This document shows positions 4,974-52,198 of a stretch of DNA of 64,000 nt, piece after piece; position 1 is the stretch's first letter, and the number at the start of each line of letters is the position of its first letter. Below the pieces are notes generated by a model, which was given only the letters and a program-made list of their open reading frames with translations, did no database searches and had not been told where the DNA came from. A program made the position numbers and the translations under genes. Source of the DNA: a virus; the IMG/VR virus record IMGVR_UViG_3300016471_000517, positions 1 to 64,000 of that record. One strand, written 5' to 3'.

Positions 4974-7900
4974 ATGCCAAAAAAACTGTGTTGTTGTAAA
5001 GAAGAAATAGTACAACCACCAATCTATCCAAATTGGATTGCTATTCCTTGTAAAGAATACGCCAATCACGTTTATAGAAAAACTATAACGCAATCACAGT
5101 TTCTTTGGCCCAACCAAACATCTTCTGCAACACCTATACCAAATTTTAATCCACTTATGTGGGATGCCGGTATAACATATCCATGGTATTTTACAGATAC
5201 TCCAAATTATGTTAGATTAGATAATCAACGACCAGTTTTTGTTATGCAAAGAGGTGGTGGGGGTGGTGGCAAAACTGGAGACAGTATAAGTTCTGCTGCA
5301 AAAGGTGGAAACGCGGCTTATGTTGAAGTCATTATCCCAGCAGACAAATATTGGGCCACAATTATTGCTTCTGGTGGTTCTGGTCCATCTGCGCTTGATG
5401 TAAGAACTTCAATACCAAATTATTCCGGTGCTCAAGGATATCCCCTATCTGGTTGGGGCGGGGGAGCAAATTTACTTTATTATTTATTTGGAATAGCAGT
5501 AGAAGCAGCAAGAAGATCTTCATCCGGTTTAATAGCTTTAGAAACAGCAAATCCTATACCGACGAATCAAAGTTTAAATGAATCATATATTGCCGCAGGG
5601 GGCGGTGGTGGTGGTGTAAATGAAAATGCTTCCGGAGGACATGGTGGAACGGTTGAAGGAATCAAAGGAAATGGAGATTATGGTGGAGCGGGTGGCAAAC
5701 AAACTTCAGGCGGAACTGTATTAAGCATATCACCAAATGCATTTGAACCACAACCCGGAACACAATTAAAAGGTGGTAGAGGAAGAGTTTTTGATCCTCT
5801 AACACCAATAACTCCATATTCCGATGCAGGTGGTGGAGGTGCTGCTGGATTGTATGGCGGAGGTGGTGGAAATATAGGAGACGCCGGTGGTGGTGGATCA
5901 AGTAAATTACAATCCGGAAGACAATATGTTTTTTCTGGAAGCACTTACGGCCCCGGAAGCAGATGCAATCCATTTTTTGGACTCACGCATGATGCTGGCC
6001 TCGGAGCCAATAGAAATGGTAGATTTATAAAAGACTGTGAAGTTTGGGAAGATTGTCCAAATTCAGGTATTACATTTTCTACAGGCGACAGCGGATCAAA
6101 CGGCGAAACAGCAACTTTGTTTAGAACAAAATGGTGCACCTGTACAGAAAATCAAATTACTGGAAAAGAGTTAGTTGAACCAAATTACATCTGTTTAACA
6201 GAAGCACAGTATCTGGCTATAATTGCTCAACAGCCAACAGTCGATCCACCTCCACCAGCACAGGGAGATGTTGAATTAAGTTTTGTTCTCAATGGTGAGA
6301 GATATATTTTACTCTATGAATGTAATCTATCATGTGAACCAGAATATATCGTTCAGGGAACACCGACAGATGTAAAGTGGTACGTTCAAGGAGCAAATCT
6401 AGCTTGGTTTGCCGATTATCCGGAATGGAATCAAGATACTGTTACTACTTGCTGTGATTGTTATGAATGTATACCGATTTGCCCTTCTTTGAAAGTGTAT
6501 GGAAGCCCCACACCAAATAGAGTTAAATCCTGTGCATATGCAAATGCATTATCTTGCTATTGGCATTTAGATCCAGTAACACAATGGTTCTATCAATGCA
6601 AACCAACAAATTGTTGGGCGAATTACGGCATAGAACAAGCAGTAAATCCATATGAACATAGAATAATGGATCCAAACACAGTATTTGATTGCACAGAGGA
6701 TCCTTGCGAAGAACCGCCAGAAAAAGTATGGTATGCTTTAAGGTGTGATGATTATTTTGAAAATGAATGTTGTCCCGATTTGGTTTGCTGTGGTCCAGAT
6801 AGAATTGAATTTTGTGAAAATTATTTAAGAAAACTTATTGGTGAATCTGAACCAAATTTAAGTAATTTTTGTTACTTCTTTTTATATTTGAATTGTGTAT
6901 ATGTTTTGACTGGGTTTGAGTTGAGAGAATGTGATCCGTCAGCATCAACTCCGGAATTACCGATAAATCAAGGTACCTTTATCGAAAGAAAAGACGCAGC
7001 AGGACAACCCTGTTGTCGGCCCACAGATCCTCCTGTAATACCACCAGATACTGGTGGAGGAGGTGGTATTCCAGTTGAATACGCACCGGTTTACACTGAA
7101 ATTACAGAAACTTACAATCCCGATGATATAGTTTGTGAAACCACCATAGTTAAATGTTATCCATTTAAAGATCAATTTGGTTTAATAACTCCAGTTTTTA
7201 TAAGTTCTGTTGCGAACACATGCGTACTAAAATCTGGAATAGATGTTTTTACTAGATCTGATGGAAGTGTTCCTACAGCAGATTATCAAACAGTTACTAG
7301 ATCTATTAATGCATTTTTTCAATATTGTAATCCAAGTTGCGAAGATGGCGGAACAGTCGCAAGAGATGCTAATGGATCGTATTTGGGTTACTTTAATCCA
7401 TTATATGAAGAAGAAATAGAATATAAAACCTGTGAAGAAACAAGTCAATATTATGCGCAAATAGCCTGCCCAAATAGATGTATAGATAATGTTCCAAGTA
7501 CTAGTACAAACTATTGTGATGATGATGATAACGAATATAGAAATCAAATAGAAAGTTATATACTTAAAACAGCATATAGATTAACTCCGTCTTCACCAGA
7601 AGACAGATATGAGGCAGATTTATTACAAATTTTTGTACCAGCTTGTGTTTATGAACAACCAAACGGGTTTAGATATCTTGGTTACGGTGTAAATGATATA
7701 AACACCGGATGGGGTCCAGCAACAACTGGTTATTTGGATTTTTCTTGTGGAGGTAGAAGACATAGAATAAATGTTTTTTCAGGCAATGCTGGCCATATAT
7801 GTGAAGCCATAAATTCTTTGTTCAATCCAATAGTGAGTGCGACAGGATTGAATCCTTATTTTTGGTTTTACAATAGACAATCTTGTTTTCAGTGTGGTAT

Positions 7901-25044: not shown

Positions 25045-25071
25045 GTAAAAACTTAAAATTTTTTGAATAAA

Positions 25072-25104
25072 CTTTTGGGCTCCTTTGGGGGCCCAAAATT
25101 TTTT
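25072..25104 (+). terminator. intrinsic terminator
   Basis: TTTTGGGCTCC-TTTG-GGGGCCCAAAA + T-run. Confidence 0.7.
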
Positions 25105-25352
25105 ATGCCATCCCATGCTTTTTGAGGTTTGGGGTCATGGGGGGTGGCCAAAAATTTTTTAGACCATCAAGGATATTTGAGAAATAGGGGTCGATCAAAG
25201 ATCATGGAGAATATTCAAGGTATTTTGAAAATATTTGAAAAAATTAAAGAGGGTGGGGGGAGCTAGCCGTCCGATAACCGCACCCAATATGGGACCCAAA
25301 TTTACTGTTTGGACATCGATCTTAACACAATTAATTTAATTCTCAAATAAAC

Positions 25353-25381
25353 TCAGAGGCCCCCTTGCGGGGGCCTCTGAG
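25353..25381 (-). terminator. terminator hairpin at the left edge of the GC block
   Basis: TCAGAGGCCCC-CTTGCG-GGGGCCTCTGA. Confidence 0.7.
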
Positions 25382-25391
25382 GGCTGGGAGG

Positions 25392-25598
25392 TTATCCCTC
25401 CGCGTGTTGGTCCCAGTAGAGCAAGTGCTCCTCGTCGGCCTCGTAGCCGGGGTCCTCGGTGGCATCCGCCTGCGCGTCCGCCTCCGCCATGTTCGCGCGG
25501 TCCAAGATTTCCTCGCACACCCCGCAGAGGGTGTCCGAGCCAGCGCAGACGCAGCAGGCGGGGCGGGTGGTTTCTTCGATGTGGGTGGTGCTGTCCAT
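25392..25598 (-). CDS. small acidic CxxC protein (early, leaderless)
   Basis: TTGCAT..TATACT-6nt-ATG; CCVC..LCGVC, acidic tail. Confidence 0.7.
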   Translation of the reverse strand: MDSTTHIEETTRPACCVCAGSDTLCGVCEEILDRANMAEADAQADATEDPGYEADEEHLLYWDQHAEG

Positions 25599-25658
25599 GC
25601 GTGTAGTATACCATACCTGCAACCGAATGCAAGCGCGTCGAAAGAAATTTCTAGAAAC

Positions 25659-25688
25659 ACTGCCGGCCCCCTTGGGGGCCGGCAGTGG
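25659..25688 (-). terminator. GC hairpin after 25711..25989
   Basis: CACTGCCGGCCCC-CTTG-GGGGCCGGCAGTG. Confidence 0.65.
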
Positions 25689-25710
25689 GCTGCAGGGTAG
25701 GCGGTGGGCG

Positions 25711-25989
25711 TTACATCTCGCCCCATCCCGCGCTCGCTAGCCAGTCGTTGTCGGCATCCCAGTCCTCGCGGGTCATCTGCCCGCAGGCATCCGCGAACGC
25801 ATCGTTGTCCGCCTCGCGGCTCGCCTCCTCAAGGGAAGGCTCCGCGTGTTCCCCTCCCCTGCGGGCCTCACGCTCCCGCTCCTGCTCCTCCTCGCACGAC
25901 GGGCACAGGCTGTCCGTGTAGGCATACTCCGGGCGGTGGCAGAAGCAGGGGAAGTGTTCGTCCTCGTGGTTGTGGTGCGCGTTGCTCAT
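25711..25989 (-). CDS. small acidic Cys-containing protein (early, leaderless)
   Basis: TTGACA(26024)-17-TATCAT-6nt-ATG; CFC..LCPSC, ends DWLASAGWGEM. Confidence 0.75.
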   Translation of the reverse strand: MSNAHHNHEDEHFPCFCHRPEYAYTDSLCPSCEEEQEREREARRGGEHAEPSLEEASREADNDAFADACGQMTREDWDADNDWLASAGWGEM

Positions 25990-25995
25990 GCCCCC

Positions 25996-26089
25996 ATGAT
26001 ACCATGCCCCGCTCCCCATGTCAACCCCTCCACCAAAGAAATATTTCTTTCATCCACCGCTTGACATGGGGCCGGGAGTCTGGTACAAT
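25996..26089. promoter_or_regulatory. divergent sigma70 promoter pair
   Basis: Minus TTGACA/TATCAT and plus TTGACA(26061)/TACAAT(26084), around palindrome AAAGAAATATTTCTTT. Confidence 0.85.
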
Positions 26090-26095
26090 GTGCGC

Positions 26096-26434
26096 ATGAA
26101 CACCACCTCACGCAACGGCATCGGCATCGTCCTCTCCTCTAACCTCTACTCGCGTCACGACGAAGTGATGAGCCTCCTCTCGAACGGGTGGGTGCAGGTC
26201 ACCTTCCGCAAGGGCAACGGTGATGTGGTCACCCGCCTCGGCACCCGCAACCCGACGCTCGTCGGCACCTTCGGTGACCGCGTGAACCTGACCGCCATCC
26301 GTAACTCCGACGGTCCCTTCAATGCGGTCCCGCTCGTCTACTTCGACCACGCTGCCGGAGACGTCCGCTCCTTCTATGTTGAGGATGTCCGGTCGGTCTG
26401 CATCCCGGCGGAGTGCCCGGAGAATAATCACTAA
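26096..26434 (+). CDS. SH3/WYL_2 (DUF2693)-like protein
   Basis: VTFRKGNGDVVTRLGTRN..YFD..G.VRSF. Confidence 0.7.
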   Translation: MNTTSRNGIGIVLSSNLYSRHDEVMSLLSNGWVQVTFRKGNGDVVTRLGTRNPTLVGTFGDRVNLTAIRNSDGPFNAVPLVYFDHAAGDVRSFYVEDVRSVCIPAECPENNH

Positions 26435-26483
26435 ATCTTTCTTCCCGCTTGACTCACCGCCTTCCACCCAGTACAATACACCC

Positions 26484-26675
26484 ATGACCACCATCCTCCG
26501 CATCACTTCCATCGTTTCGATCCTCTGCATCATCTTCGCCGCGTTCCTCACCTTCGGGCTCGCCTACAACGGCGACTACATCGGCGCCATGATCTGCCTT
26601 GCGCTGTGCGGTCTGTCGGTCGTGAACTGGCTAATCTCCAATGCGGTGCGCGAAGAATACTACGAGGTCCGGTAA
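26484..26675 (+). CDS. small two-TM membrane protein
   Basis: TTGACT(26449)/TACAAT(26472)-6nt-ATG; two hydrophobic stretches. Confidence 0.7.
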   Translation: MTTILRITSIVSILCIIFAAFLTFGLAYNGDYIGAMICLALCGLSVVNWLISNAVREEYYEVR

Positions 26676-26754
26676 CAACCTAACGAGGTGGTGCTCGTAC
26701 CAGCCGAAAAGGATTCGCTCCCTGCCCCGATTAGTTCGGGGCTAGGCTGTTTGA

Positions 26755-26839
26755 GGGCTACTATCCGGATCCCGCCTACGGCGGGATCCGGACCCCCTCC
26801 CAGGGGCCTCGGATCCTCGCTGCGCTCGGATAGTAGTCC
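26755..26839. repeat. palindromic element copy 1
   Basis: GGGCTACTATCCGG-hairpin...CGGATAGTAGTCC. Confidence 0.9.
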
Positions 26840-26843
26840 GGGG

Positions 26844-27074
26844 TTACCAGTTCACCTCCCCGCGCTCCTTGCGGTCCATAAACTCAATCTTAGCGGCAAT
26901 CCGTTGCAGTTCGCGGTCCATCTCGGCTTCTACTGCTGCTGCTGCGTCGTCTAGCCACCACATGCGACCGGGTTCGGCATCCCCGATGTCGCATCCACGG
27001 TCGGGATCGTAGTCGCAATCGCGGCCGCAGACATGGGGGCGGGTGGGTTCACCGTTGTTAGAGGAGTGGTGCAT
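26844..27074 (-). CDS. small Cys/acidic early protein
   Basis: TTGCAA/TACAAT-6nt-ATG on minus; MHHSSNNGEPTRPHVCGRDCD. Confidence 0.7.
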   Translation of the reverse strand: MHHSSNNGEPTRPHVCGRDCDYDPDRGCDIGDAEPGRMWWLDDAAAAVEAEMDRELQRIAAKIEFMDRKERGEVNW

Positions 27075-27080
27075 GTCGGC

Positions 27081-27173
27081 ATTGTACCAGACTGGGGCGT
27101 CGATTGCAAGCGGGGAGGAATAAATAAATTCTTTCGTGGTGGGGTTGACACAGCCACCCCAGTCTGGTACAAT
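27081..27173. promoter_or_regulatory. divergent sigma70 promoter pair with 17-bp inverted repeat
   Basis: ATTGTACCAGACTGGGG ... CCCCAGTCTGGTACAAT; TTGACA at 27145. Confidence 0.85.
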
Positions 27174-27179
27174 ACGCGC

Positions 27180-27740
27180 ATGAACACCACCACCACCCGC
27201 TACGCCGCCGTCCGCTCCGCTGCCATCGATTCCTTCATCACGCTGCTCGCGCAGGCTACGCTCTTTGACCTGCGCGCTGCCGAGCGTTGGTACGATGAGG
27301 CGGGCGCGTTCGCTGAATCCCTCCGCGCCACCACCGGGTGGAGCCTCGAAACGTCGGCCAGCGTCGTGTCGGCCTTCTCGCCCCGTGTCACTTGGGCGCA
27401 CAACAAGGCGAAGGCGACGCAGTACGCTCAGGGCATCACGCCGAAGGGTCTGCGGTCCCACGTGGTCGCGGCGGATCGGTGCGTCGCGGAAGGCTTCAAC
27501 GGCCTGCGCGGGCTCAAGACTAACGCGTTCGCCCGTGCCATCGCGGGTGACCGTGAGGCCGTCGTCGTGGACGTTTGGATGTGCCGTGCTGCGGGCCTCG
27601 GGAAGGATGCTCCCAACAAGACGGAATATCGGGCCATCGCATCGGCCATCCGGACCATCGCGGCCACGCCTGCCGTCAGCATGGCCCCGGCCACCCTTCA
27701 GGCCCTGCTGTGGATCATCATCCGGGGGAAGGCGGAATAA
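27180..27740 (+). CDS. DUF7178-like (HhH glycosylase-like fold) protein
   Basis: WY..A, SAFSPRVTW..N, GLKTNAF, VVVDVWM.RA, Y..I, LQA..W. Confidence 0.6.
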   Translation: MNTTTTRYAAVRSAAIDSFITLLAQATLFDLRAAERWYDEAGAFAESLRATTGWSLETSASVVSAFSPRVTWAHNKAKATQYAQGITPKGLRSHVVAADRCVAEGFNGLRGLKTNAFARAIAGDREAVVVDVWMCRAAGLGKDAPNKTEYRAIASAIRTIAATPAVSMAPATLQALLWIIIRGKAE

Positions 27741-27788
27741 TCCGCCCGACCCCTTGACACGGGACCGAAACGAAGGTACAATACACCC

Positions 27789-27941
27789 ATGAACACCACC
27801 ACCAAGATTCGCGTCCGATTCGTCCACGAAGCACTGCGGGAAGGAATCCGGCTCCGCCCCAAGACCTGGGGCAAGAAGAGCCGGGACACTCGCAAGGCCA
27901 GGAGGGAAGGAAAGCGGGAAACGGCCCTAGAGGTGGTCTAG
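27789..27941 (+). CDS. small basic protein (50 aa)
   Basis: TTGACA(27754)/TACAAT(27777)-6nt-ATG; MNTTTKIRVRFVHEALREG... Confidence 0.65.
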   Translation: MNTTTKIRVRFVHEALREGIRLRPKTWGKKSRDTRKARREGKRETALEVV

Positions 27942-28036
27942 GGCTACTATCCGGAGGCCCCGTAGGGGCCTCCGGACCCCCTCGGACTCTGCGAGCCCTC
28001 GGATAGTAGTCCCCGCCTGGACGCACTTACCGGACC
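27941..28036. repeat. palindromic element copy 2 + TTACCGGAC box
   Basis: GGGCTACTATCCGGAGGCCCC-GTA-GGGGCCTCCGGA...CGGATAGTAGTCC. Confidence 0.9.
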
Positions 28037-28102
28037 CGAAGAAATTTAGAAATATTCTGCCCACCGCTTGACTGCCGGCCCGCCACCTGTTACAATACGC
28101 CC

Positions 28103-28510
28103 ATGTCCACCACCTCCACCGTCACCGTCCCCGCCGCCTTCCTGCCCGCCGCCATCGACCAGTCGATCCGCGCCGTTGAGGTCACGAAGGACCTCTCCTC
28201 CCTGTACCCGATCATCGGGTGCGATATGGTGGAGATCGTCCCGATCAACCACGCCTACGATTTCACCATGTGGTGCGACGAGGAGGGCTACCTCAAGGGT
28301 TCCCCGCTCAACATCCGGGCCTCCGTCATCGCGGGCCGTCACATCTTCGGGAATGTGATCCTCACCGGGGGCAAGGAGGAGATCGAAGCCTTCAGAATGT
28401 CCTGCCCCGCCGAATGGTTCCAGTCGGTGGAGGAGGCCGCAGCGTCGGTGCTGATGGCCCACCCCGAACTGCTCCGCCTCATCCTCGTGCAGGAGGGGGG
28501 AAAGAAATAA
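28103..28510 (+). CDS. DUF3846-like protein
   Basis: LY..IGC.MVE.V, MWCDEEG.LKG.P.N.RAS, IFGNV..TG. Confidence 0.75.
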   Translation: MSTTSTVTVPAAFLPAAIDQSIRAVEVTKDLSSLYPIIGCDMVEIVPINHAYDFTMWCDEEGYLKGSPLNIRASVIAGRHIFGNVILTGGKEEIEAFRMSCPAEWFQSVEEAAASVLMAHPELLRLILVQEGGKK

Positions 28511-28560
28511 ATCTTTCTTTCACGCTTGACAAGCGCACCTCGAACTGGTACAATACACCC

Positions 28561-28782
28561 ATGACCACCACCCTCACCGTCAAGATTCCCGCTTCCTGCG
28601 ACCGTTACGCCTACGCCTACGGCTGGGTTTCCGGCTGCATGAGCAATGTCGCAATCTACATCAAGCAGTTGGAAAACGCCACGGACGATGAACACCGCGC
28701 ACTCCTCGTGGAGCGCATCATGAATCAGGTGGAGTCCTTCAAGGCGATGGATGACTGCCTTCACAAGGAGGAAACGAAGTGA
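28561..28782 (+). CDS. hypothetical early protein
   Basis: TTGACA(28526)/TACAAT(28549)-6nt-ATG. Confidence 0.7.
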   Translation: MTTTLTVKIPASCDRYAYAYGWVSGCMSNVAIYIKQLENATDDEHRALLVERIMNQVESFKAMDDCLHKEETK

Positions 28783-29024
28783 ACAACACCCTAGCCCGTC
28801 GTGCCCGAATCATGCTCTCCGAAGGACAGCAGATCGTCGTCAAGTTTCGCAAAAAGGATGGAACGGAGACCACTCGCGGAATCACCCGCAACCTGACCAT
28901 CATTCCGAAGGACAAGCATCCGAAGTTTGTCCGAGCCGAGAACCCCCACTTCATCACCGGTTTCGACCTTGAGAAGGTAGACTGGATTCGGTTTCACGAA
29001 GACGATATTCTTGCGGTCCTCTGA
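28779..29024 (+). CDS. SH3/WYL_2 (DUF2693)-like protein
   Basis: AAGGAGG SD + GTG; VKFRKKDGT...TRNL..IP..FDLEK.DW..F. Confidence 0.75.
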   Translation: MNNTLARRARIMLSEGQQIVVKFRKKDGTETTRGITRNLTIIPKDKHPKFVRAENPHFITGFDLEKVDWIRFHEDDILAVL

Positions 29025-29059
29025 TTGAAACTCGCACCCCGAACTGGTACAATGCACCC

Positions 29060-29416
29060 ATGAACACTCTCCACCCGATTCGTTCCTCCGCCTGTGTCTC
29101 ACTCGCCGCCAACATCCGCGAGAGCGAACTGATGCTCCCGCAGATCAAGGGCGACGCCCTTGAGACCAATGCAACCCTCGCGTTCTGCGAGATCGCCATG
29201 TCCGTCCCCCCGCAATGGTTCACGCCCGCCGAGCGCATGACGATCTTCAATGTCGTGAACACGCTCTACGGCCATCCGACGAAGTTTCTGTCGGACATCG
29301 ACAGCGAGACCGTTTCCTTCGTCGCCAAGTGTGGCGAACTCTGCGGAAATCGCCCACTCGCTTCCTTCGTGGAGGCTCTGCACAAGGTCCACGAAGCGGA
29401 GTGCGGAAAGAACTAG
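29060..29416 (+). CDS. hypothetical early protein
   Basis: TTGAAA(29025)/TACAAT(29048)-6nt-ATG. Confidence 0.7.
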   Translation: MNTLHPIRSSACVSLAANIRESELMLPQIKGDALETNATLAFCEIAMSVPPQWFTPAERMTIFNVVNTLYGHPTKFLSDIDSETVSFVAKCGELCGNRPLASFVEALHKVHEAECGKN

Positions 29417-29430
29417 GGTGCAGGAGGGTC

Positions 29431-29460
29431 CGATGGGGGGGCCGAAAGGCCCCCCCATCG
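29431..29460 (+). terminator. GC hairpin
   Basis: CGATGGGGGGGCC-GAAA-GGCCCCCCCATCG. Confidence 0.7.
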
Positions 29461-29466
29461 TGGACA

Positions 29467-29559
29467 GGACTACTATCCGAAAATCCTTAAGGATTTTCGG
29501 ATTTCTCGCTGGACTGTTCGCCCACCTCGCCGGATAGTAGTCCGAGGACGTTATCGGAC
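29467..29559. repeat. palindromic element copy 3 + TTATCGGAC box
   Basis: GGACTACTATCCGAAAATCC-TTAA-GGATTTTCGGA...CGGATAGTAGTCC. Confidence 0.9.
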
Positions 29560-29629
29560 CCCCCAAAAAAACTTCTATATTTCCATCCTCCCGGTTGACA
29601 CCACCCCCCGCCCGTGATACAATGCACCC

Positions 29630-29863
29630 ATGACCAACCCATACGACCCCAACTACGAAGATGACACCAACGACTCCGACCTCATGCCCTACGATGATGC
29701 GTTCGATGACGAAGATTACGTTGCCGAACTGATCGCGGAAGGCTACAGCGAGGACGAAGCCCGCCGCATGGTGGGTGAATACAACGCCGACGAGTTCTAC
29801 GGCTTCGATGATGACTCCGACCGTGACACTCCCGACTTCATTGACGATGGAGACTTTGAATGA
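29630..29863 (+). CDS. very acidic 77-aa protein (DNA-mimic candidate)
   Basis: TTGACA(29595)/TACAAT(29618)-6nt-ATG; Asp/Glu-dominated. Confidence 0.75.
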   Translation: MTNPYDPNYEDDTNDSDLMPYDDAFDDEDYVAELIAEGYSEDEARRMVGEYNADEFYGFDDDSDRDTPDFIDDGDFE

Positions 29864-30219
29864 TCGTTAAGATCAGAGCAGCCTTTCCCAAAACGGGAAG
29901 TTCGGGATGGAAGGTGCGCAGGCACAACAAGTGCATGGCAAGCCTTCTGCGGTGTGCGGCTCTTTCATCACGCTCGGATCAAAGTTTTGGCATGATGATC
30001 ACCGCAGACTTCTCCATGACCTACCGAAGCGACATCTACATCTACACAATAGAGTTTCCAGATTCGTGGGCAGAATCCCAGATTCAACAGTTTGCCCGCC
30101 TCGTAAAACAAGTGAAACATTTCTACGCCGTGGACTTGACACCCCTTTCTCCGACTGGTACAATACCACCATGCACCGACCCAACTCACCAACGACCTGT
30201 GACATCAGCGACCTGCTGA
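29860..30219 (+). CDS. hypothetical protein
   Basis: ATGA overlap with upstream stop, GGAG SD. Confidence 0.5.
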   Translation: MIVKIRAAFPKTGSSGWKVRRHNKCMASLLRCAALSSRSDQSFGMMITADFSMTYRSDIYIYTIEFPDSWAESQIQQFARLVKQVKHFYAVDLTPLSPTGTIPPCTDPTHQRPVTSATC

Positions 30220-30398
30220 ACGAAGTGTTCTCCTTCATTCAGGAGAACCCCCTGTGGTACGAGAACGAGGACGGCCTGCGCTCAATGGCGAAGGCGTACT
30301 CAATCATCGGGATGGTTTCCCGCCCCGATATGTGTACCGAAGAGGAGTGCGAGTTCGTCATGTCCATTCACGCCCAACTTCAGGAGGCCCGTCAATGA
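30171..30398 (+). CDS. hypothetical early protein
   Basis: TTGACA(30136)/TACAAT(30159)-6nt-ATG. Confidence 0.65.
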   Translation: MHRPNSPTTCDISDLLNEVFSFIQENPLWYENEDGLRSMAKAYSIIGMVSRPDMCTEEECEFVMSIHAQLQEARQ

Positions 30399-30739
30399 AC
30401 CCCAAGAACCAGTTTGAAGGATTCTTCGACAATCCGGAGAAGCCCCTCTCCTTCAACGCCGACACGATCAAGCCTCCGATGGGAGCCATCATTCAGACGC
30501 TCATGATGGTCTGCGCGTCGGTTCCCGAATGGCACAAGCAGGGTGCAATGCGACTGTTCATGTGCGAAGGACTGCACATGGCATCCGACCACATGCGCGA
30601 ATACAAGGAGAGAGGTGACGATCCTCCGGTGACGAGTGCCGAGGCAGCGTTCATGATGATTCTTGGAGATCTGCTCGCCGCCACCACGCAGTACGCTTCG
30701 GACGAAGAAAAGAAAAAGTTTCGTACCGACGAAGAGTGA
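30395..30739 (+). CDS. hypothetical protein
   Basis: AGGAGG SD, ATGA overlap. Confidence 0.7.
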   Translation: MNPKNQFEGFFDNPEKPLSFNADTIKPPMGAIIQTLMMVCASVPEWHKQGAMRLFMCEGLHMASDHMREYKERGDDPPVTSAEAAFMMILGDLLAATTQYASDEEKKKFRTDEE

Positions 30740-30779
30740 ACTTGACAGCCCCGCGCCCATCGGATAGAATGGGCAACAC

Positions 30780-30852
30780 GGGTTCGTAGCGCAATCGGTA
30801 GCGCAGTAGACTTTTAATCTATTGGTTGTGGGTTCAAGTCCCACCGGACCCA
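30780..30852 (+). tRNA. tRNA-Lys(UUU)
   Basis: Cloverleaf; GTAGA-CTTTTAA-TCTAT arm; GTTCAAG T-loop; promoter TTGACA(30742)/TAGAAT. Confidence 0.95.
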
Positions 30853-30854
30853 TT

Positions 30855-31127
30855 ATGACAGACCCACTTCATTTCGATCCGCAAATCTTCGCACTTCAGA
30901 TGTACGACCGCGTCAACATCGTCGCAGACCTCATCGTGGAGCATTGGTTGGAAGGCAACGCCAATCCCCCGAAGGAACTGATGGATGCCTACTTCGACGC
31001 GGTGGACGCAGCCCAACTCGCTATCAATGGCAACCGACTGCATGAGTCCGTAGTTCGACCCAACGGAGAGTTCTACGAAGAGATTCATGCCAAGTTTGGA
31101 CTTGACAAGGGGCCACTTCTGAAGTAG
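30855..31127 (+). CDS. hypothetical protein
   Basis: ATG 2 nt after tRNA-Lys; GC-biased codons. Confidence 0.6.
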   Translation: MTDPLHFDPQIFALQMYDRVNIVADLIVEHWLEGNANPPKELMDAYFDAVDAAQLAINGNRLHESVVRPNGEFYEEIHAKFGLDKGPLLK

Positions 31128-31138
31128 AATGATCCCAC

Positions 31139-31211
31139 GGCACGGTAGACCAATGGCAGAGTCAATTGACTCAAAATCAATCAAGTGTGGGTTCGAGTCC
31201 CACCCGTGCTA
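31139..31211 (+). tRNA. tRNA-Leu(CAA) lacking the long variable arm
   Basis: ATTGA-CTCAAAA-TCAAT arm, 5-nt variable loop, GTTCGAG; promoter TTGACA(31102)/TAGAAT. Confidence 0.85.
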
Positions 31212-31218
31212 TTACCGA

Positions 31219-31301
31219 GATGGATCTTCTTCAAGACCATCCAAGAAGGAAGGGCCAACGAGCCGGAAACCGTTTACGGTAGACCGTAGATTAGCCCTTC
31301 C
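31219..31301 (+). ncRNA. putative structured RNA between tRNA-Leu and tRNA-Arg
   Basis: GATGG/CCATC stem whose loop can pair with AAGAAGG; GGAAGGGC/GCCCTTCC stem enclosing a hairpin. Confidence 0.4.
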
Positions 31302-31305
31302 GATT

Positions 31306-31379
31306 GTTCCCGTAGCCCAACCGGATAGAGCAGCCGCCTTCTAAGCGGCAGGTTACAGGTTCGAGTCCTGTCGGGAACG
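31306..31379 (+). tRNA. tRNA-Arg(UCU)
   Basis: Cloverleaf; GCCGC-CTTCTAA-GCGGC arm. Confidence 0.95.
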
Positions 31380-31411
31380 TTTGACAAGAAAGAAAAAGGT
31401 GGTACAATGTA

Positions 31412-31515
31412 TCCCAACTTGATTACTATTTTATAAAGTTTGGTGGTTTACAAAAACCACACAGAGGCATTCTGCGAATGCACGGTTGGGAACTAGCCGT
31501 AAAATTAGTTTCCCA
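31412..31515 (+). ncRNA. putative structured leader RNA of tRNA-Ile
   Basis: Follows promoter TTGACA(31381)/TACAAT(31403); two hairpins plus a pseudoknot-compatible segment. Confidence 0.4.
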
Positions 31516-31516
31516 C

Positions 31517-31592
31517 GGAAGGGTGGCTGAAAAGTAGTTAGAGCGCATGCCTTATAAGCGTGAATATGTGGGTGCAACTCCCGCCCCTTCCA
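31517..31592 (+). tRNA. tRNA-Ile(UAU)
   Basis: GGAAGGG/CCCTTCC acceptor; CATGC-CTTATAA-GCGTG arm; variant T-loop TGCAACT. Confidence 0.8.
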
Positions 31593-31651
31593 CTAAACTT
31601 TTTTCCGTCCGATTGCTTGACAAGACCCCAAACAGAAGGTACAATAGAAAC

Positions 31652-31933
31652 ATGAATATCGACTTCAACACCATGGCCATCGTCGTTCTTTCCGCCTTCT
31701 CTGCCTTCTTCGGCATCGGCTACATTCGTGCCCGCATTGCTGACAAGTTTTCCACCCTTCGTGAGGAAATGCAGAGCAATGCGCGAGAGTTCTACGCAGA
31801 ACAGGATCGAATCTACCAGCGCATCAACCGCCTTGAGGAGAGGGTTGAGAGCATGACCACTTACAGTTCTCACAAGCGGTACACCAACGAGAAGCCCATG
31901 CACGACAAGAACTACTACAACTCGGAAGTCTGA
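31652..31933 (+). CDS. single-TM coiled-coil protein
   Basis: TTGACA(31617)/TACAAT(31640)-6nt-ATG. Confidence 0.7.
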   Translation: MNIDFNTMAIVVLSAFSAFFGIGYIRARIADKFSTLREEMQSNAREFYAEQDRIYQRINRLEERVESMTTYSSHKRYTNEKPMHDKNYYNSEV

Positions 31934-31956
31934 CCGCTGCGGACTTGCGATTCATA

Positions 31957-31995
31957 CACAGACCCCCTGAGTATTTGCAGGGGGTCTGTTCTTTT
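31957..31995 (+). terminator. intrinsic terminator
   Basis: ACAGACCCCCTG..CAGGGGGTCTGT + TCTTTT. Confidence 0.75.
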
Positions 31996-32085
31996 GACTA
32001 CTATCAAAAAATCGCCGCTTAAAGCGATTTTTTGAGGATGGGGGATATTATTATTCCGGATAGTAGCCCAGGACAACTTATAGGA
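31996..32085. repeat. palindromic element copy 4 + TTATAGGAC box
   Basis: GACTACTATCAAAAAATCGC..GCGATTTTTTGA...CGGATAGTAGCCC. Confidence 0.85.
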
Positions 32086-32145
32086 CCTGAAAAAAGATTT
32101 CTGTCTTTGGTTGACTCGGACCAAACCTTGTGGTAAGATTGGGGC

Positions 32146-33402
32146 ATGAACAGCAACATCGACATTCGCAAGCGCAACTTCCTCAACGCCCTCTGCATCA
32201 TGTACGGAACGCCCACCTGCGTCGGTGACGCCATCTACACCCGTGACCAATGCCTTGAGGCTCTTCGCCGCTGCCATGATGGGGGATTGCAGACCTATAC
32301 CGTCCTCCCGGCTTGGCTGACGCAGGACCAGTCCCGCCGCCAAGGCCGTGGAGTCTACTCCATTCATGAGATGGTCAACGTGGAGATCGAAGAGGACAAG
32401 AATCTTTCAGAAACTTTCGACTCAAACTTGACCGCACCCGAAACTTGTGATACAATGGAACCCATGAACAGCAACGCCTACAACCTCGTCATGCCCGCCA
32501 ACGATGTTTCCCTCGTCCCCGTCAAGAACGACACTTTCGTGCCGTGGGGTCACTACGAGGACATCAACTCCATCCTCGCATCCAAGCAGTTCGCTCCGGT
32601 CTACATCACCGGACTGTCCGGCAACGGCAAGACCACGATGATCGAACAGGTCTGCGCCAACACCGGGCGCGAGTGCATTCGTGTCAACATCACCGCCGAA
32701 ACGGATGAGGATGACCTCATCGGTGGCTTCCGCCTCATCAATGGCGAAACGAAGTTCGTGTTCGGTGGCGTGGTGCAGGCCATGCAGCGTGGGGCCATTC
32801 TGCTCCTTGACGAGATTGACCTCGGAACGGAGCGCATGATGTGCCTTCAGCCCGTGCTTGAGGGCAAGGGCATCTACATCAAGAAGATCGGCGCGTTCGT
32901 CAAGCCCGCTCCCGGCTTCAATGTGGTGGCCACGGCCAACACGAAGGGCAAGGGTGAGTCTGATCGGTTCGTCGGGACTCGCTGCATGAACGAGGCTTTC
33001 CTTGACCGTTTCTCGTACTGGTTTGAGCAGGAGTACGCGGACAAGGCCATCGAAGCCCGCATCATCATTCGCAAGATGAAGGCTTACGGCAAGGAGGACA
33101 AGGACTTCGCCGGATACCTCGTCAAGTGGGCAGAAACGATCCGCTTGGGCTTCAAGGAGGGTGGCTTGGATGACATCATCACGACCCGCCGACTGGAGGA
33201 AGTCTGCAAGGCGTTCGCCATCTTCGGCAACAAGGAGAAGGCCATCCGTCTGACGCTCACGCGGTTCGACGCTGCAACGCAGGAGGCTTTCTTCAACCTC
33301 TACACCAAGATCGACCCCACCATTCTTCCCACCCCGGAGGGGATGAAGGACGAATCTTCATCCGCCAATCACAACACGCCTGCTAACGCAGTTCACGCCT
33401 AA
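32146..33402 (+). CDS. MoxR/CobS-like AAA+ ATPase
   Basis: GLSGNGKT Walker A, RVNITAETDEDDLIGG, LLLDEID, TANTKGKG, NEAFLDRF, TRRL; promoter TTGACT(32111)/TAAGAT. Confidence 0.92.
   Translation: MNSNIDIRKRNFLNALCIMYGTPTCVGDAIYTRDQCLEALRRCHDGGLQTYTVLPAWLTQDQSRRQGRGVYSIHEMVNVEIEEDKNLSETFDSNLTAPETCDTMEPMNSNAYNLVMPANDVSLVPVKNDTFVPWGHYEDINSILASKQFAPVYITGLSGNGKTTMIEQVCANTGRECIRVNITAETDEDDLIGGFRLINGETKFVFGGVVQAMQRGAILLLDEIDLGTERMMCLQPVLEGKGIYIKKIGAFVKPAPGFNVVATANTKGKGESDRFVGTRCMNEAFLDRFSYWFEQEYADKAIEARIIIRKMKAYGKEDKDFAGYLVKWAETIRLGFKEGGLDDIITTRRLEEVCKAFAIFGNKEKAIRLTLTRFDAATQEAFFNLYTKIDPTILPTPEGMKDESSSANHNTPANAVHA
32428..32456 (+). promoter_or_regulatory. internal promoter giving an in-frame start at 32464
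   Basis: TTGACC-17-TACAAT-7nt-ATG, in frame (codon 107). Confidence 0.7.
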
Positions 33403-33420
33403 CAAAGAAAGAGAAAAAAA

Positions 33421-33651
33421 ATGCCATACCTCAACAAGCGCAATCGTTTCGTCGCAGCCGCCAAGAACTACGCGGAGAACAGTCCGCTCCTTCAGGGCGA
33501 CTTCAGCAAGTTCACCAAGCACGATCTTCTTCAGATCGCGCAGAGCATCAACATGAAGGGTGTTCCGACTTGGGTGCTGAAGGAGTACCGTAGCGCGGTG
33601 AGTCAGAGGGCTTACGATCTGTCCTCACTCATCAACCCCGTGACCGTCTGA
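33421..33651 (+). CDS. standalone paralog of the AAA N-terminal domain
   Basis: KRNRFV..Y..FTK.DL..PTWV..R..R.Y.L resembles KRNFL..Y..YTRDQ..PAWL..RRQGRGVYSI. Confidence 0.65.
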   Translation: MPYLNKRNRFVAAAKNYAENSPLLQGDFSKFTKHDLLQIAQSINMKGVPTWVLKEYRSAVSQRAYDLSSLINPVTV

Positions 33652-33660
33652 TGCTGTTCA

Positions 33661-33690
33661 TGCCCCGGCCCCCACAAGGGGGCCGGGGCA
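33661..33690 (+). terminator. GC hairpin
   Basis: TGCCCCGGCCCCC-ACAA-GGGGGCCGGGGCA. Confidence 0.7.
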
Positions 33691-33699
33691 GCAGGTGTC

Positions 33700-33808
33700 G
33701 GACTACTATCCGAGGCCCCGCTAAAGGGCCGAGGACTCGCAGAACTTTATTATTTTTGGATGGTGCCGGATAGTAGTCCCCCCCGGACCAGCTCGAACGT
33801 TACCGGAC
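33700..33808. repeat. palindromic element copy 5 + TTACCGGAC box
   Basis: GGACTACTATCCGAGGCCC..GGGCC...CGGATAGTAGTCC. Confidence 0.85.
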
Positions 33809-33866
33809 GCAAAAAAGATTTTCCATTGCGCTTGACCTGACCCCGAACTTGTGGTAAGATTACAGC

Positions 33867-36071
33867 ATGAACACCTCTCTCTCCATCTTCGCCCGCGCTC
33901 TCGCCACCGAAAACCTTTCTTTCTCCTTTGACGCGGAGGCTCCCACGGCATCGTTCGATGTCAAGACCCGCCACCTCGTCATGCCCGTGTGGAATGTCTC
34001 CGACACCCTTCAGACCATGCTCGTGGCTCACGAGATCAGCCATGCCCTGTGGACTCCCTACGAGCGTAGCGAGGAGTTGATGAAGCAGGCGGAGGCTGAT
34101 GGGTTCGTCGCCAAGTTGCTGCACCGCATCTGCAATGTCATCGAAGATGTCCGCATCGAGAAGATGATGAAGGCGAAGTACCCCGGTACTCGTCGGGACT
34201 TCTTCTTGGGCTACAAGGAGGTCGTGGACAGCGACCTGTTCAAGTTCAGCGAGATGGACATTGCGAAGGTCGGACTCATCAACCGCATGAACATTCACTT
34301 CAAGTGGGGCATTCCCGGCTTTCTGAATGTGAATCTTTCTGACGAGGAGCAGGGCATTGCGGACCTGATCGACGCGGTGCAGACCTTTGACGAGGCTTTC
34401 CAGTTGGCGAAGGCTCTCTACAAGCATCCGTCGATGGACGAGATGCGGAAGAAGTACGAGGAGCAGCAGCAGAATGGTTCCGGCAAGGGCGATCCTTCCG
34501 ATGCCAAGCGTGGCAAGGAGCAGACCGAAGGGCTTGGCATGATCGACATGGAGGGTGGGTTCGTTCGCAAGACGGGTGAAACTTTCACCGCGACCACGCT
34601 CACCATTTCTCCGATTCAGAATGTTTCGGATCAGATCATCACGACCGACGATCTTCTTTCGGAGTTTGAGCAGCAGTCTCACCTCCCGCTCACCATCACC
34701 TCCTACCGGGAGTTCGTGAAGGATTCCGATTCCTTCGTTCGCCAGTTGGTTGCCCAGTTTGAGCGTCGCAAGGCGGCTGACGAGATCCGGCGTGAGCGTC
34801 CCAAGCAGACCGGGATGCTCAACCTTGACCGCCTGCACCAGTACCGGACGCATGACGATATCTTCCTGTCGAAGATCATCAAGCAGGACGGCAAGAACCA
34901 CGGGATCTGCTTCTTCCTTGATTGCAGCGGTTCGATGGGGAACACCATTTCGGATTGCTTCCTTCAGATTCTTCAGTTGGTTTGGTTCTGCGAGAAGGCG
35001 AAGATTCCCTTTGAGGTGTTTGGTTTCACCGAAATGGGCATGATGGGCGAGCGTGGCAGGATTGATTCGGAGACTCTCCGCGCAATGATTGCGAAGGGCG
35101 ACAACAGCCCCTACCAGTCGCAATACGCTCCCAAGTTTGTGAATCTTCGTCCGAACAGCCTGATGTACGGTGGGTGCAAGTTGATTCAGTTGGCATCCTC
35201 GTCGGACGATGCGGCCAAGCGTGAACGGCTCCTCGCCTTTCTCTACGAGGCCATTGTCATGAAGGTGCGGAATCGCGTGTTCTCGCTTGGTTCGACTCCG
35301 ACCGTGGAGGCCATGATGATCGGAAGCCAGTTCATGCAGAAGTGGGTGGCCGACAAAAAGATTCAGATTCCGACCGTCATGGTCGTTACGGACGGTCAGC
35401 CCAACGGAGTCTACTTCCAGTCCGAACACATGAGAAGTGGGGGGGATAGCGTTCCCTACACCGCGATTGGTGGGACTTCCCTCACCGTGAACAACGAGAT
35501 TCTTCAGCAGGTCACTCGCGTCGATACGGTGGCCAACCGTGGAATGTCGATGGGCAATGTCGTGGTGTCGGTCATCCTTGAGGATCTTCGCAAGACTCTG
35601 AACGCCCGCACCGTGGGAATGTTCGTGGGTAGCAAGACTTTCAGCGCGAATATGTTCTGCTCGTTCTGCGTCACGACCGACGAATCGGAGAAGATTCATG
35701 AGGAGGAGCAGGAGCAGTATCGCAAGGGCAACTACAACTCTAGTGGTTCCTACGAGTGCAGCCCCCGGTTCATTGCGATCAAGGAAGTCTACAATCGGGA
35801 AGGGTGCATCATTCTGCCGAAGTCTCTGTACCCCGGCTATGACGGCTTCTTCCTCATCAAGACTCCCAAGATCGTCAAGGACGAGGATGCCATCGTGGAC
35901 TCCGGTACTTTCACGCGAGTGAAGAACACCTTTGTCAAGACGATGGGGCAGCGTGGATCTAGCCGTGTGTTCCTCACCCGGTATGTGGACATCGTGGCGG
36001 GTCAGCCTCTCAAGGCCGTGGGCGAGGAGGTCTACCGCCTCTCTGCCAACCCTGCCAAGAAAGATAAGTAA
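33867..36071 (+). CDS. CobT-like metallopeptidase-vWA domain protein (AAA partner)
   Basis: TASFDV..R.L..P.W, HEISHALWT, NVIEDVRIEK, DCSGSM MIDAS, STP, VTDG; promoter TTGACC(33832)/TAAGAT. Confidence 0.9.
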   Translation: MNTSLSIFARALATENLSFSFDAEAPTASFDVKTRHLVMPVWNVSDTLQTMLVAHEISHALWTPYERSEELMKQAEADGFVAKLLHRICNVIEDVRIEKMMKAKYPGTRRDFFLGYKEVVDSDLFKFSEMDIAKVGLINRMNIHFKWGIPGFLNVNLSDEEQGIADLIDAVQTFDEAFQLAKALYKHPSMDEMRKKYEEQQQNGSGKGDPSDAKRGKEQTEGLGMIDMEGGFVRKTGETFTATTLTISPIQNVSDQIITTDDLLSEFEQQSHLPLTITSYREFVKDSDSFVRQLVAQFERRKAADEIRRERPKQTGMLNLDRLHQYRTHDDIFLSKIIKQDGKNHGICFFLDCSGSMGNTISDCFLQILQLVWFCEKAKIPFEVFGFTEMGMMGERGRIDSETLRAMIAKGDNSPYQSQYAPKFVNLRPNSLMYGGCKLIQLASSSDDAAKRERLLAFLYEAIVMKVRNRVFSLGSTPTVEAMMIGSQFMQKWVADKKIQIPTVMVVTDGQPNGVYFQSEHMRSGGDSVPYTAIGGTSLTVNNEILQQVTRVDTVANRGMSMGNVVVSVILEDLRKTLNARTVGMFVGSKTFSANMFCSFCVTTDESEKIHEEEQEQYRKGNYNSSGSYECSPRFIAIKEVYNREGCIILPKSLYPGYDGFFLIKTPKIVKDEDAIVDSGTFTRVKNTFVKTMGQRGSSRVFLTRYVDIVAGQPLKAVGEEVYRLSANPAKKDK

Positions 36072-36092
36072 ATCTTTCCAAACATCTTCATG

Positions 36093-36134
36093 CCCACCCA
36101 GGACTGGAAGGAGAGAGCCAGTTCTGGGTGGGTT
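36093..36134 (+). terminator. terminator hairpin
   Basis: CCCACCCAGGACTGG..CCAGTTCTGGGTGGG. Confidence 0.65.
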
Positions 36135-36137
36135 CTT

Positions 36138-36213
36138 ACTACTATCAAAAAACCTTAAGGTTTTTTGAGTTTTCTTGCATTACTTGCGGACATGGCGGAT
36201 AGTAGTCCCGGAC
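36138..36213. repeat. palindromic element copy 6
   Basis: ACTACTATCAAAAAACC-TTAA-GGTTTTTTGA...CGGATAGTAGTCC. Confidence 0.85.
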
Positions 36214-36264
36214 AACCTCTGCCAGGTACGGGATTGTTTCCAGCTTTCCAAATAATTTATTAAT

Positions 36265-36865
36265 TCTCGGACGGACTTATCGGACTCCAGGTGCACGCCT
36301 GGGACCCATTATCGGACTTGTACTTAGTTACTTGACATCCCCCATATCTGGTGTATAGTTATCAGACTGTTCATGCGACCGATAACCCCCTCGTCCCGAC
36401 CTGTGACTGATAATCGTAAGTATTATCGGGCAGGGGGTTATCGGACGTTATGGTGGGTCCTAGTTATCGGACTATGCGTTATCGGTCTCTACTGGGGAGT
36501 TATCAGACTCACCCAGACGGTTTCAAATTTTTCTGAAAAACTTCCCGGACAGGATTCAAAGATTTCTGAAAATATTGAAAACTACTATCCGGGGGTTCTG
36601 GGACTGTATCGAATGTCCCTTATGGGACCTGGACGGGACTGAGATCCCCCCTTGCCTGGACGGGATGTAGCTTTCTGGACAGGATTGACGAGAAATTTAA
36701 TATAATTGCTTGTTTTACCTGTCCTGGCTGGACGGGTTACAAAAAATTGTCAAAAATTTGTAAATTTCTTTGAAAATTTGTCAAATTAATGCTTGACAGG
36801 CTATAAAGCCTTATAAGGCTTTGTTGTTTTGGACGGGCTGGGACCCTAGGAAGGCTTTCGGACCG
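36265..36865. repeat. non-coding iteron-like cluster (TTATCRGDC x~10; GGACRGG x~6) with AT-rich tract
   Basis: Copies at 36277, 36309, 36359, 36377(rev), 36405(rev), 36423, 36438, 36464, 36479, 36500; GGACRGG at 36547, 36631, 36658, 36677, 36730, 36831. Confidence 0.85.
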
Positions 36866-36996
36866 TTTATAGAGCATTTAAAGTGGGTTGGAGAGGGTTT
36901 GAGGTGGGGTGTCTAACTCCAATTTTCTCAAATTTTCTTAAATATTCTTTACCCCACTTGCTCCCATTCTCCCCCACCTTTACCCCCCATACATTC

Positions 36997-51892: not shown

Positions 51893-52198
51893 TAAAAATC
51901 CCGGTTTTTCAGATGCGGGAAAACCGGGAAACCCCACTGCTTTAAGCAGCCATCCGCATTGGTGCGGCTTTTATATTTGCAACTGTTTATTTACGACACT
52001 TGTTACCCGTGTCGGGTATCTCCTTCTTCATTACTCTGCGCCAATCGAAGCCATTTCAGCCCCTTAAATGCCCCGCTGCAACGAGGACTTGAATCGCCAT
52101 TCCCAGAGTTTGCAGAGGTTCTGGGTTAGGCTAATGGAGCCGAGGGGAATCGAACCCCTGTCTTGTTCGCATTTCAATCCGATATCAACAATACCGAT
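51893..52198 (-). ncRNA. ssrA: circularly permuted (two-piece) tmRNA
   Basis: 3' acceptor piece GACAGGGGTTCGATTCCCCTCGGCTCCA (ends 52135) precedes 5' piece GGGGCTGAAATGGCTTCGA (starts 52063); G3:U70 pair; tag ANIKAAPMRMAA* at 51980-51942. Confidence 0.9.

Follow-up and report, generated by a model that had tools for sequence, protein, structure and literature searches.

How the densely packed, tiny genes in the early 'host-takeover' regions of large phages are regulated is poorly understood, and the locus described here raises the question of what marks the boundaries within such an array. The stretch under study, referred to as the window, comprises 64,000 nt of the viral record IMGVR_UViG_3300016471_000517 and belongs to a 117,060-bp contig that is 58% complete. 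Its GC-rich early block contains six copies of an intergenic palindromic element in which two inverted copies of one 8-mer accompany a hairpin. An initial annotation had proposed that this element is a structure-specific recombination site for shuffling early-gene cassettes, an insulator, or a protein-bound or single-stranded DNA signal acting during DNA entry. Comparison with related phages identifies it as a strongly selected cis-element of an abundant, uncultured clade of freshwater T4-like phages, and probably as the distal member of a tandem pair of terminator hairpins that closes an early operon.

Paired 8-mers at early-operon boundaries

Counting both strands, the window contains 14 copies of the 8-mer CTACTATC, where 0.87 would be expected, and none of 100 shuffles reached that number. 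Twelve of the occurrences form six convergent pairs, CTACTATC...GATAGTAG, which span 66-79 nt and lie where the initial annotation had placed them (Table 1); all six right arms have the sequence (T/C/G)CGGATAGTAG(T/C)CC, also as described there. An exact search of the contig found only two further occurrences, at 36582 (+) and 45683 (-), both of which had been taken for half-sites. The former proved under error-tolerant searching to be the left arm of a seventh, degenerate element whose right arm is short of one base; this left arm is conserved in the relatives G001, G002 and G004. The latter, ahead of a tRNA-Glu gene, is a single stray GATAGTAG, about what chance would provide. Exact, error-tolerant and covariance-model searches of the 117,060-bp contig revealed no additional exact pair. 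The covariance model, which the annotation had suggested building, was constructed from nine copies in relatives and run across the whole contig; its hits to elements 6 and 3 were significant and those to 4, 2 and 5 weak, and it also scored one ordinary terminator (25344-25386) but matched nothing in the other 53 kb.

The element forms part of a larger boundary module with a constant order. The end of the upstream gene is followed by a first GC hairpin, the left 8-mer and a second hairpin, then by a tail rich in pyrimidines or T, a spacer that is not conserved, the right 8-mer with YCC, and GGAC, and finally by a TTAYNGGAC box, an A/T tract and a -35 element. The initial annotation had described much of this layout, and it holds. 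The first GC hairpin is present upstream of all six window copies, three times as a perfect 12-13 bp stem, and the second, inner hairpin opens within the left 8-mer at A6, T7 or C8 and closes in GA(T). Copies 2-5 are followed by the TTA box (after gaps of 17, 10, 11 and 23 nt), an A/T tract and a sigma70-type promoter of the form TTGACx-N17-TAxxxT, with an ATG 6 nt past the -10 element. Element 1 sits between convergent genes and has no promoter behind it. When the window and its relatives are taken together, a promoter (TTGACx-N16-18-TAxxxT) with a leaderless ATG lies 29-79 nt after 48 of 61 elements; the ATG follows the -10 element by 5-8 nt and there is no Shine-Dalgarno sequence. Only some gene junctions carry an element, while at others a promoter stands directly behind the stop codon, so that the elements mark off sets of one to about five genes.

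The right arm has neighbouring motifs, GGAC and TTAYNGG, that behave as DNA sites, and the latter box also makes up the iterons described below. GGAC lies within 14 nt of the right arm in 45 of 62 copies compared with 5.3% of controls, and TTAYNGG, in one orientation or the other, is found no more than 30 nt away in 31 of 62 copies compared with 3.5%. The occurrence of the TTATCGG box in both orientations near elements, together with the iteron array, shows that the spacers are read as duplex DNA.

Related phages carry the same arrangement. An exact-pattern scan of both strands in IMG/VR gave multi-copy matches in a handful of contigs, and the five that were examined further hold 2-6 copies each, whereas a reversed-pattern control gave none. 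A search guided by the DUF7178 protein yielded 21 loci, of which 20 contain the 8-mer; the exception, L100, is the most distant (46% protein identity) and was set aside as a different kind of genome that lacks the early block. The window, the five contigs and the DUF7178-guided loci were pooled to give 63 distinct convergent pairs, 56 of them exact and seven with one mismatch, besides two direct pairs, both in L087, and no divergent pair. About 20 related phage contigs in IMG/VR carry elements at orthologous junctions, where the surrounding DNA is 66-88% identical and the 8-mers are essentially invariant. Position counts over the 63 copies of each arm define a 13-nt half-site, GGR-CTACTATC-MG, that is mirrored on the right arm; six of the eight core positions are invariant and the other two nearly so. 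The half-site exists in lineage-specific versions (CAG or CCGG; arm variants CTACTATCAG and CTACTATCCGG). Element lengths vary continuously from 34 to 79 nt, the shortest being single long perfect hairpins without a spacer, and this short form and the form with a spacer substitute for each other at orthologous positions.

Beyond these phages the motif has left little trace. Among 185,579 species-representative genomes none carried it in multiple copies, and there were three single chance matches, two in apparently coding or unrelated contexts and one in a small operator-like palindrome of a Steroidobacteraceae metagenome-assembled genome. An origin from a host repeat was dropped on this result, which also gave no clue to the host. 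No Rfam family matches the elements at gathering thresholds, and the searchable literature, subscription journals being outside it, yielded no description of the motif; the text matches listed for the words CTACTATC, GATAGTAG, TTATCGGAC and GTCCGATAA looked like primers or barcodes, and none of those listed dealt with phage regulation.

Covarying hairpin and invariant arms

The inner hairpin and the arms differ in how they evolve. A perfect Watson-Crick inner stem of 9-14 bp (mean 11.7, SD 0.94), with a loop of mostly 3-4 nt, is found in 59 of the 63 convergent copies, and the four imperfect hairpins are orthologues of element 5. In the window the stem is perfect, at 10-13 bp, in five copies and imperfect at 33703. 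Its sequence is different in every copy, and the initial annotation had read this as covariation, an interpretation that a formal test bears out. In a gap-free alignment of nine copies of equal geometry, nine of the 12 pairs changed on both sides and all 108 cells were paired; there was no one-sided change and hence no G.U pair. The covariation score was reached by none of 500 shuffles, and controls in which the alignment was slid dropped to 31-47% paired. The armless upstream hairpins share the 12-13 bp perfect design and are as perfect as the inner ones; stem perfection may therefore be a general, mutational property of the terminator-type palindromes of this phage. Between close relatives, loops have become exact reverse complements of each other (TCTGA/TCAGA in L097 8343 and L098 8343; GCA/TGC in G001, L073, and G005, L077 7881), the kind of small inversion made by palindrome-mediated strand switching. 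These two inversions show that the palindromes evolve fast and symmetrically, as does a compensated double change that separates the window from G004. Of 59 copies, 26 have a T-tract behind the inner stem, with T at five or more of the 9 nt that follow. Among the window copies, the terminator pattern is seen in elements 3 and 6, whereas C-tracts follow elements 1 and 2.

The 8-bp cores of the arms never vary together and are silent on pairing, so that the flanking positions are the informative ones. The first outward pair is A-T in 10 cases, A.C in 14, G.T in 17, G-C in 22 and A.A in two of the 65 pairs, which gives 32 Watson-Crick pairs against 32.4 expected from shuffles. Inward position 9 shows an apparent covariation (53 of 65 across all pairs). 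This signal vanishes when right arms are shuffled within genomes, where out of 54 the pairs observed and expected are 43 and 43.7 at position 9, 36 and 36.0 at position 10, and 30 and 32.0 at position -1; it thus reflects the lineage-specific CAG or CCGG versions of the half-site and not pairing. In each of the seven elements with a mismatch, the same change affects a single arm (four as CAACTATC on the left, three as GATAGTTG on the right), and none is compensated.

A different arrangement occurs in G006, a 137 kb contig with the same gene order as its relatives, in which no inverted pair was found. Three of its junctions have 2-3 direct copies of the motif right behind a terminator hairpin. 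Direct copies are unable to pair with one another and yet could bind a protein, so that G006 favours half-sites over a stem. The direct repeats of GATAGTAG that replace the inverted arms lie at 7700-7900 and 10500-10720 of L087, which is part of G006, and at 100-300 of L105. The near-invariance of the 8-mers, amid surroundings that are 66-88% identical and around hairpins that differ completely, points to strong purifying selection on their sequence, not on structure alone. The G006 lineage also possesses additional consensus promoters that lack an ATG; their transcripts would start with ..TTGGTGGACAA and may be lineage-specific small RNAs.

A possible insulator and its rivals

The reading that we favour, tentatively, is that the 8-mers are paired binding sites in duplex DNA for a factor that clamps the terminator, which would make the element a stoperator-like insulator within a module resembling the promoter early stem-loop (PeSL) cassettes of T4-like phages. 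One sequence-specific factor, of phage or host origin, would recognise both copies of GGR-CTACTATC-MG, and the inner hairpin would act as another terminator, built like the upstream one. The factor would sit at the terminator foot and again 0-36 bp beyond, such that polymerase on the T-tract would abut the bound protein, and RNA polymerase arriving from either side would be blocked or stalled. An early operon that can be translated only from a 5'-terminal AUG would thereby be transcriptionally insulated from its neighbours, and the same sites might let the factor time the adjacent promoter. A leaderless start codon that lies internally in a read-through RNA, with no Shine-Dalgarno sequence, should be poorly translated, and read-through would also occlude the next promoter. 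Tight insulation is therefore plausibly valuable. The continuous 34-79 nt spacing excludes a rigid dimer on B-form DNA and is compatible with independent 13-mer sites, as in stoperators. That a protein binds the 8-mers, that it affects elongation or termination, and which factor it might be are points that we infer from patterns in the sequence. Of the alternatives put forward in the initial annotation, a real and selected cis-signal that punctuates the early block has stood, and an insulating or protein-bound role fits it, while the shuffling role has not.

Several observations weigh against a protein clamp. Pfam and PHROGs searches found no helix-turn-helix or other DNA-binding domain in the early-block proteins, and no binder was identified. 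Pairs are convergent in 63 of 65 cases and the hairpin foot merges with the left arm in 63 of 63, a regularity and fixed polarity that a fold or cruciform explains more naturally than freely placed sites. The asymmetry of the element also tracks transcription, with the hairpin and T-tract on the upstream side and the spacer downstream, so that an RNA-level role fits as well, and the direct-repeat form comes from one lineage only. Two candidates for what acts at the arms were tried and rejected. A WYL_2 protein (28779-29024) is absent from G006, which nevertheless retains the 8-mer in direct pairs; being drawn from one lineage, this contrast speaks if anything against WYL_2 as the binder. The TACTAT within the arm was considered by inspection as a -10-like sequence for a sigma-dependent pause or promoter, but there is no consistent -35 element and the predicted pause would fall inside the hairpin. 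A stronger version of the clamp, in which a dedicated factor grips both sides of the terminator, acts as a bidirectional, stoperator-like insulator that gives each leaderless early operon of a host-mimicking GC-rich island its own autonomous transcription, and is linked through shared GGAC/TATC sub-motifs to the iteron cluster at the close of the island, is rather doubtful; if true, it would amount to a new cis/trans system that partitions and times early phage transcription.

The regularities just described are what an RNA clamp would predict, although we regard one as unlikely. The right arm would pair with the left arm in read-through transcripts to form a composite helix of 17-18 bp with a 3'-side bulge, serving as an RNase III-like processing site or as a protective or neutralising 3' structure of the read-through RNA; RNase III processing takes place between the early genes of T7. 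Convergent arms with the free spacing of a fold, a hairpin that adjoins the upstream-gene-side arm in all 63 convergent pairs, a uniform total of potential helix (about 8 plus 9-10 bp) and an outer stem in the minimum-free-energy fold of some copies (elements 5 and 6) all suit this idea. It is countered by the arms themselves, which show no covariation beyond the lineage consensus, leave the seven one-base variants uncompensated and have A.C as common as A-U at the first flanking pair, and by G006, whose direct copies cannot pair. Moreover, the right arm lies behind two terminators and would rarely be transcribed, RNase III cleavage is not known to require an invariant 8-bp sequence, and the lack of G.U pairs in the counted stems (0 of 108 one-sided) is unusual for selection on RNA only. 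Perfect palindromes of Watson-Crick pairs alone with 3-4 nt loops would suit a signal in DNA structure, in which a cruciform or hairpin extruded by promoter supercoiling or replication is read by an enzyme specific for both structure and sequence; a nickase, a priming factor or a protein that binds junctions could play this part. The loop inversions indicate palindromes that have been active as DNA structures over evolutionary time, and the motif abuts the hairpin foot, pointing inward, in the 63 convergent copies and in two of the three G006 sites. We consider such a signal improbable, given that the armless upstream hairpins are equally perfect, that a nick in each strand, with 34-79 bp between them, would sever the genome, and that no HUH enzyme was found when the Y1 family, the only one tested, was searched for.

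The proposal that early-gene cassettes move as units at the element, whether through an attC-like structure-specific site or a PeSL-type patch of homology, is in our judgement very unlikely. There is a formal likeness to integron attC sites, which also stand at the 3' end of gene units and have short conserved inverted ends around a palindromic centre that varies in sequence and length, and gene turnover in the block is high. However, the 22 related stretches that were mapped by gene family share one backbone order with orthologous elements at the same junctions, and DNA alignments with relatives are colinear, so that gene order is invariant across a motif that the relatives keep; G006 retains this order even without inverted elements. 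Accessory genes have been replaced gene by gene and equally often at junctions with and without elements, and the four window genes that lie between elements 2 and 3 are each retained by a different set of relatives; turnover thus runs by single genes and not by the element-bounded units that the initial annotation had envisaged. Between the window and its closest relative, G004, the step in identity falls inside the gene for a 734-aa protein and not at an element. The recombinase sought elsewhere in the genome did not appear either, as the 58%-complete contig yielded no tyrosine recombinase (PF00589, 0 matches), no serine recombinase or resolvase, and no Y1 HUH transposase (PF01797, RAYT/Y1, 0 matches). 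The cassettes possess their own promoters, unlike those of integrons, and the arms do not fit the core consensus of attC sites. Four public sequencing runs were examined as contigs only, one of them an RNA run in which contigs cannot show 3' ends, and these contigs held no convincing excision or inversion joint; joints that appeared to go back or to skip lie between look-alike modules (the promoters of the two AAA/vWA genes; elements 4 and 6) and were put down to cross-mapping. Weak hints of cassettes persist. A gene of family 44/22 lies between two elements in G003 and beside one in G001, G002 and G005, and is absent from the window, and Logan contigs of a 100%-identical population (29540-36205, run X4) start or stop at elements 3, 4 and 6, with depth steps of up to 10-fold between neighbouring segments; these breaks could reflect strains that share segments unevenly, or variable hairpins that merely break the assembly graph. 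The element indicates that attC-like anatomy can exist without cassette mobility. A selfish origin, as a miniature inverted-repeat transposable element (MITE) with 8-13 bp terminal inverted repeats and no phage function, is largely refuted. The copies are small, intergenic and have such repeats, but they share their ends only, with unrelated interiors and no visible target duplication in the flanks. They also hold orthologous positions in genomes that have diverged to the 66-88% identity given above, their invariant ends and replaced interiors are the reverse of neutral decay, and the species genomes contain no multi-copy source.

A role in DNA entry, the remaining suggestion of the initial annotation, is weakened by the ends of the 126-kb G001 contig (L073 1-165 and the end of L072), which share an overlap of 163 nt (94% identity) in the module made up of the promoter and element 1. 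Such an overlap is weak evidence that the genome is circularly permuted, as expected of a T4-like phage, and that assembly opened it at the element.

By the features tested, the element is not an attC site, a MITE, or a repetitive extragenic palindromic sequence or bacterial interspersed mosaic element (REP/BIME). It resembles REP/BIME, the RNase III sites of T7 and Correia-type palindromes, which shape the ends of transcripts, as a conserved hairpin-forming extragenic repeat at gene 3' ends, and differs from them in the 8 bp conserved in each arm and in the lack of pairing covariation between arms; REP/BIME are further set apart by the RAYT-type transposase, which was not found in the contig, and by their many-copy host genomes, none of which occurs among the representatives searched. 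Three phage systems come closer in one respect or another. PeSL cassettes consist of a stem-loop, an A/T-rich stretch and a near-consensus sigma70 early promoter, and end in a Shine-Dalgarno sequence and start codon; their stems are loosely conserved, and they are closely tied to indels and replacements between related genomes and to mini-circle formation (PMC4122927). The unit described here likewise combines stem-loop, A/T tract and sigma70 promoter and is repeated between small early genes in a plastic, high-turnover region of a T4-like phage. Unlike in PeSL cassettes, the genes are leaderless, invariant inverted 8-mers bracket the stem, and the elements stand at conserved junctions and do not appear to coincide specially with indels. 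The stoperators of Cluster A mycobacteriophages are described as short asymmetric 13-mers in short intergenic spaces that are thought to stop elongating RNA polymerase and that can work singly, which leaves their spacing free; they are single, oriented with transcription, distributed genome-wide in temperate phages and bound by the immunity repressor (PMC9283540). The half-site is similar in being an asymmetric conserved site of about 13 bp in short intergenic spaces with free spacing, and different in that sites are paired around a terminator hairpin, in the early block only, of a lytic-type myovirus. The ESAS of Cluster K mycobacteriophages are imperfect inverted repeats with 17-bp arms and a 4-13 bp spacer (PMC3203893); they share with the element a variable spacer, a location upstream of a subset of non-structural genes and orthology between relatives, and they are tied to a translation-start motif where the element is tied to a terminator hairpin.

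The retention of an exact 8-base signal at early-operon boundaries by a clade of abundant, uncultured lake phages gives these comparisons a wider interest. If a protein reads the signal, it would offer a handle on how strong tandem promoters are insulated and timed and how leaderless genes are shielded from read-through, and the motif with its binder could serve as a compact, portable transcription insulator.

The GC-rich island and its neighbourhood

The coordinates of the elements and associated features are collected in Table 1.

Table 1. Positions in the window of the early block, the boundary elements and the associated sequence features.
Feature	Position (strand)	Length (nt)	Arms or sequence	Inner hairpin	Upstream hairpin	Remarks
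Early block	25045..36995 (.)		50-65% GC; genome 37.8% GC			All elements inside
Element 1	26758..26836 (+)	79	Arms 26758-26765, 26829-26836	26764-26792, perfect		
Element 2	27944..28009 (+)	66		27950-27976	27924-27944	
Element 3	29470..29540 (+)	71		29475-29502, then T-rich tail	29431-29460, 13 bp	
Element 4	31998..32066 (+)	69		32004-32035	31958-31989, terminator with T-tract	
Element 5	33703..33776 (+)	74		Imperfect, GGCCC/GGGCC core	33661-33690, 13 bp	
Element 6	36139..36205 (+)	67		36145-36168, then T-tract	36093-36132	
Element 7, degenerate	36582..36670 (+)		Left arm intact; right arm GGGATGTAG, one base missing			
TTAYNGGAC box	28027..28035 (+)					After element 2; further boxes at 29551-29559, 32078-32086, 33800-33808
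Sigma70-type promoter (example)	28068..28105 (+)		TTGACT-N17-TACAAT-N6-ATG			Leaderless; same layout from 29595, 32111, 33832
Iteron cluster	36277..36509 (+)		About 10 TTATC(G/A)GAC, two inverted			Between elements 6 and 7

Judged by its baseplate wedge protein, which is about 25% identical to gp6 homologues, the phage is a distant relative of T4, and its structural and CobS-like proteins bear a distant resemblance to those of T4, cyanophages and pelagiphages. The sequencing runs that contain its DNA are labelled as freshwater or lake metagenomes. An origin among Thermus phages (phiYS40) had been considered, as the sole DNA match to a named phage is a 45-nt piece of tRNA-Arg in the Thermus phage phiLo; it was dropped on account of the run labels and the protein resemblances.

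An 11-kb GC-rich island is present in every relative examined and contains all leaderless, sigma70-type early units. In the window it has about 16 near-consensus promoters (TTGACA-N17-TACAAT) with the ATG of a leaderless gene 6 nt behind the -10 element, and four tRNA genes, each with its own promoter. Its products include a CobS/MoxR-like AAA protein, a 734-aa partner that matches a PHROG family annotated as peptidase, DUF7178 and DUF3846 proteins, and two WYL_2 (Sm-like barrel) proteins. The island may mimic the composition of the host, and one speculative idea is that host-like GC content would let it evade the silencing of AT-rich foreign DNA. Within the gene of the CobS-like protein, a consensus promoter with an in-frame ATG (32428-32466), also found in G001, would yield a form of 312 aa shortened at the N-terminus.

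The iterons and element 7 are followed by CTGGAC(R)GGA repeats and A/T-rich 21-nt repeats (36519-36790). A TTGACA/TATAGT promoter sits among the iterons, and the early promoters are preceded by the same 9-mer. The region from 36277 to 36790 may be an origin or a regulatory hub.

Immediately ahead of element 1, a non-coding piece of about 75 nt (26680-26757) is the best-conserved stretch of the island. Of the 15 relatives with coverage there, 14 match it at 88-97% identity and the other at 75%, and L089 has two copies. It contains a hairpin with a GUGGUG loop and an outer CAGCC/GGCUG stem with four compensated pairs, and is a candidate for a small RNA or a 3' untranslated structure. Against Rfam RF02968 (DUF3800-IX RNA) it gives a full-length match that is below threshold (26.5 compared with 36.8 bits, E 9e-4). 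Further along the window, the phage encodes a permuted, two-piece transfer-messenger RNA at 51942-52195 (-), which matches Rfam RF04321 at 77.4 bits.

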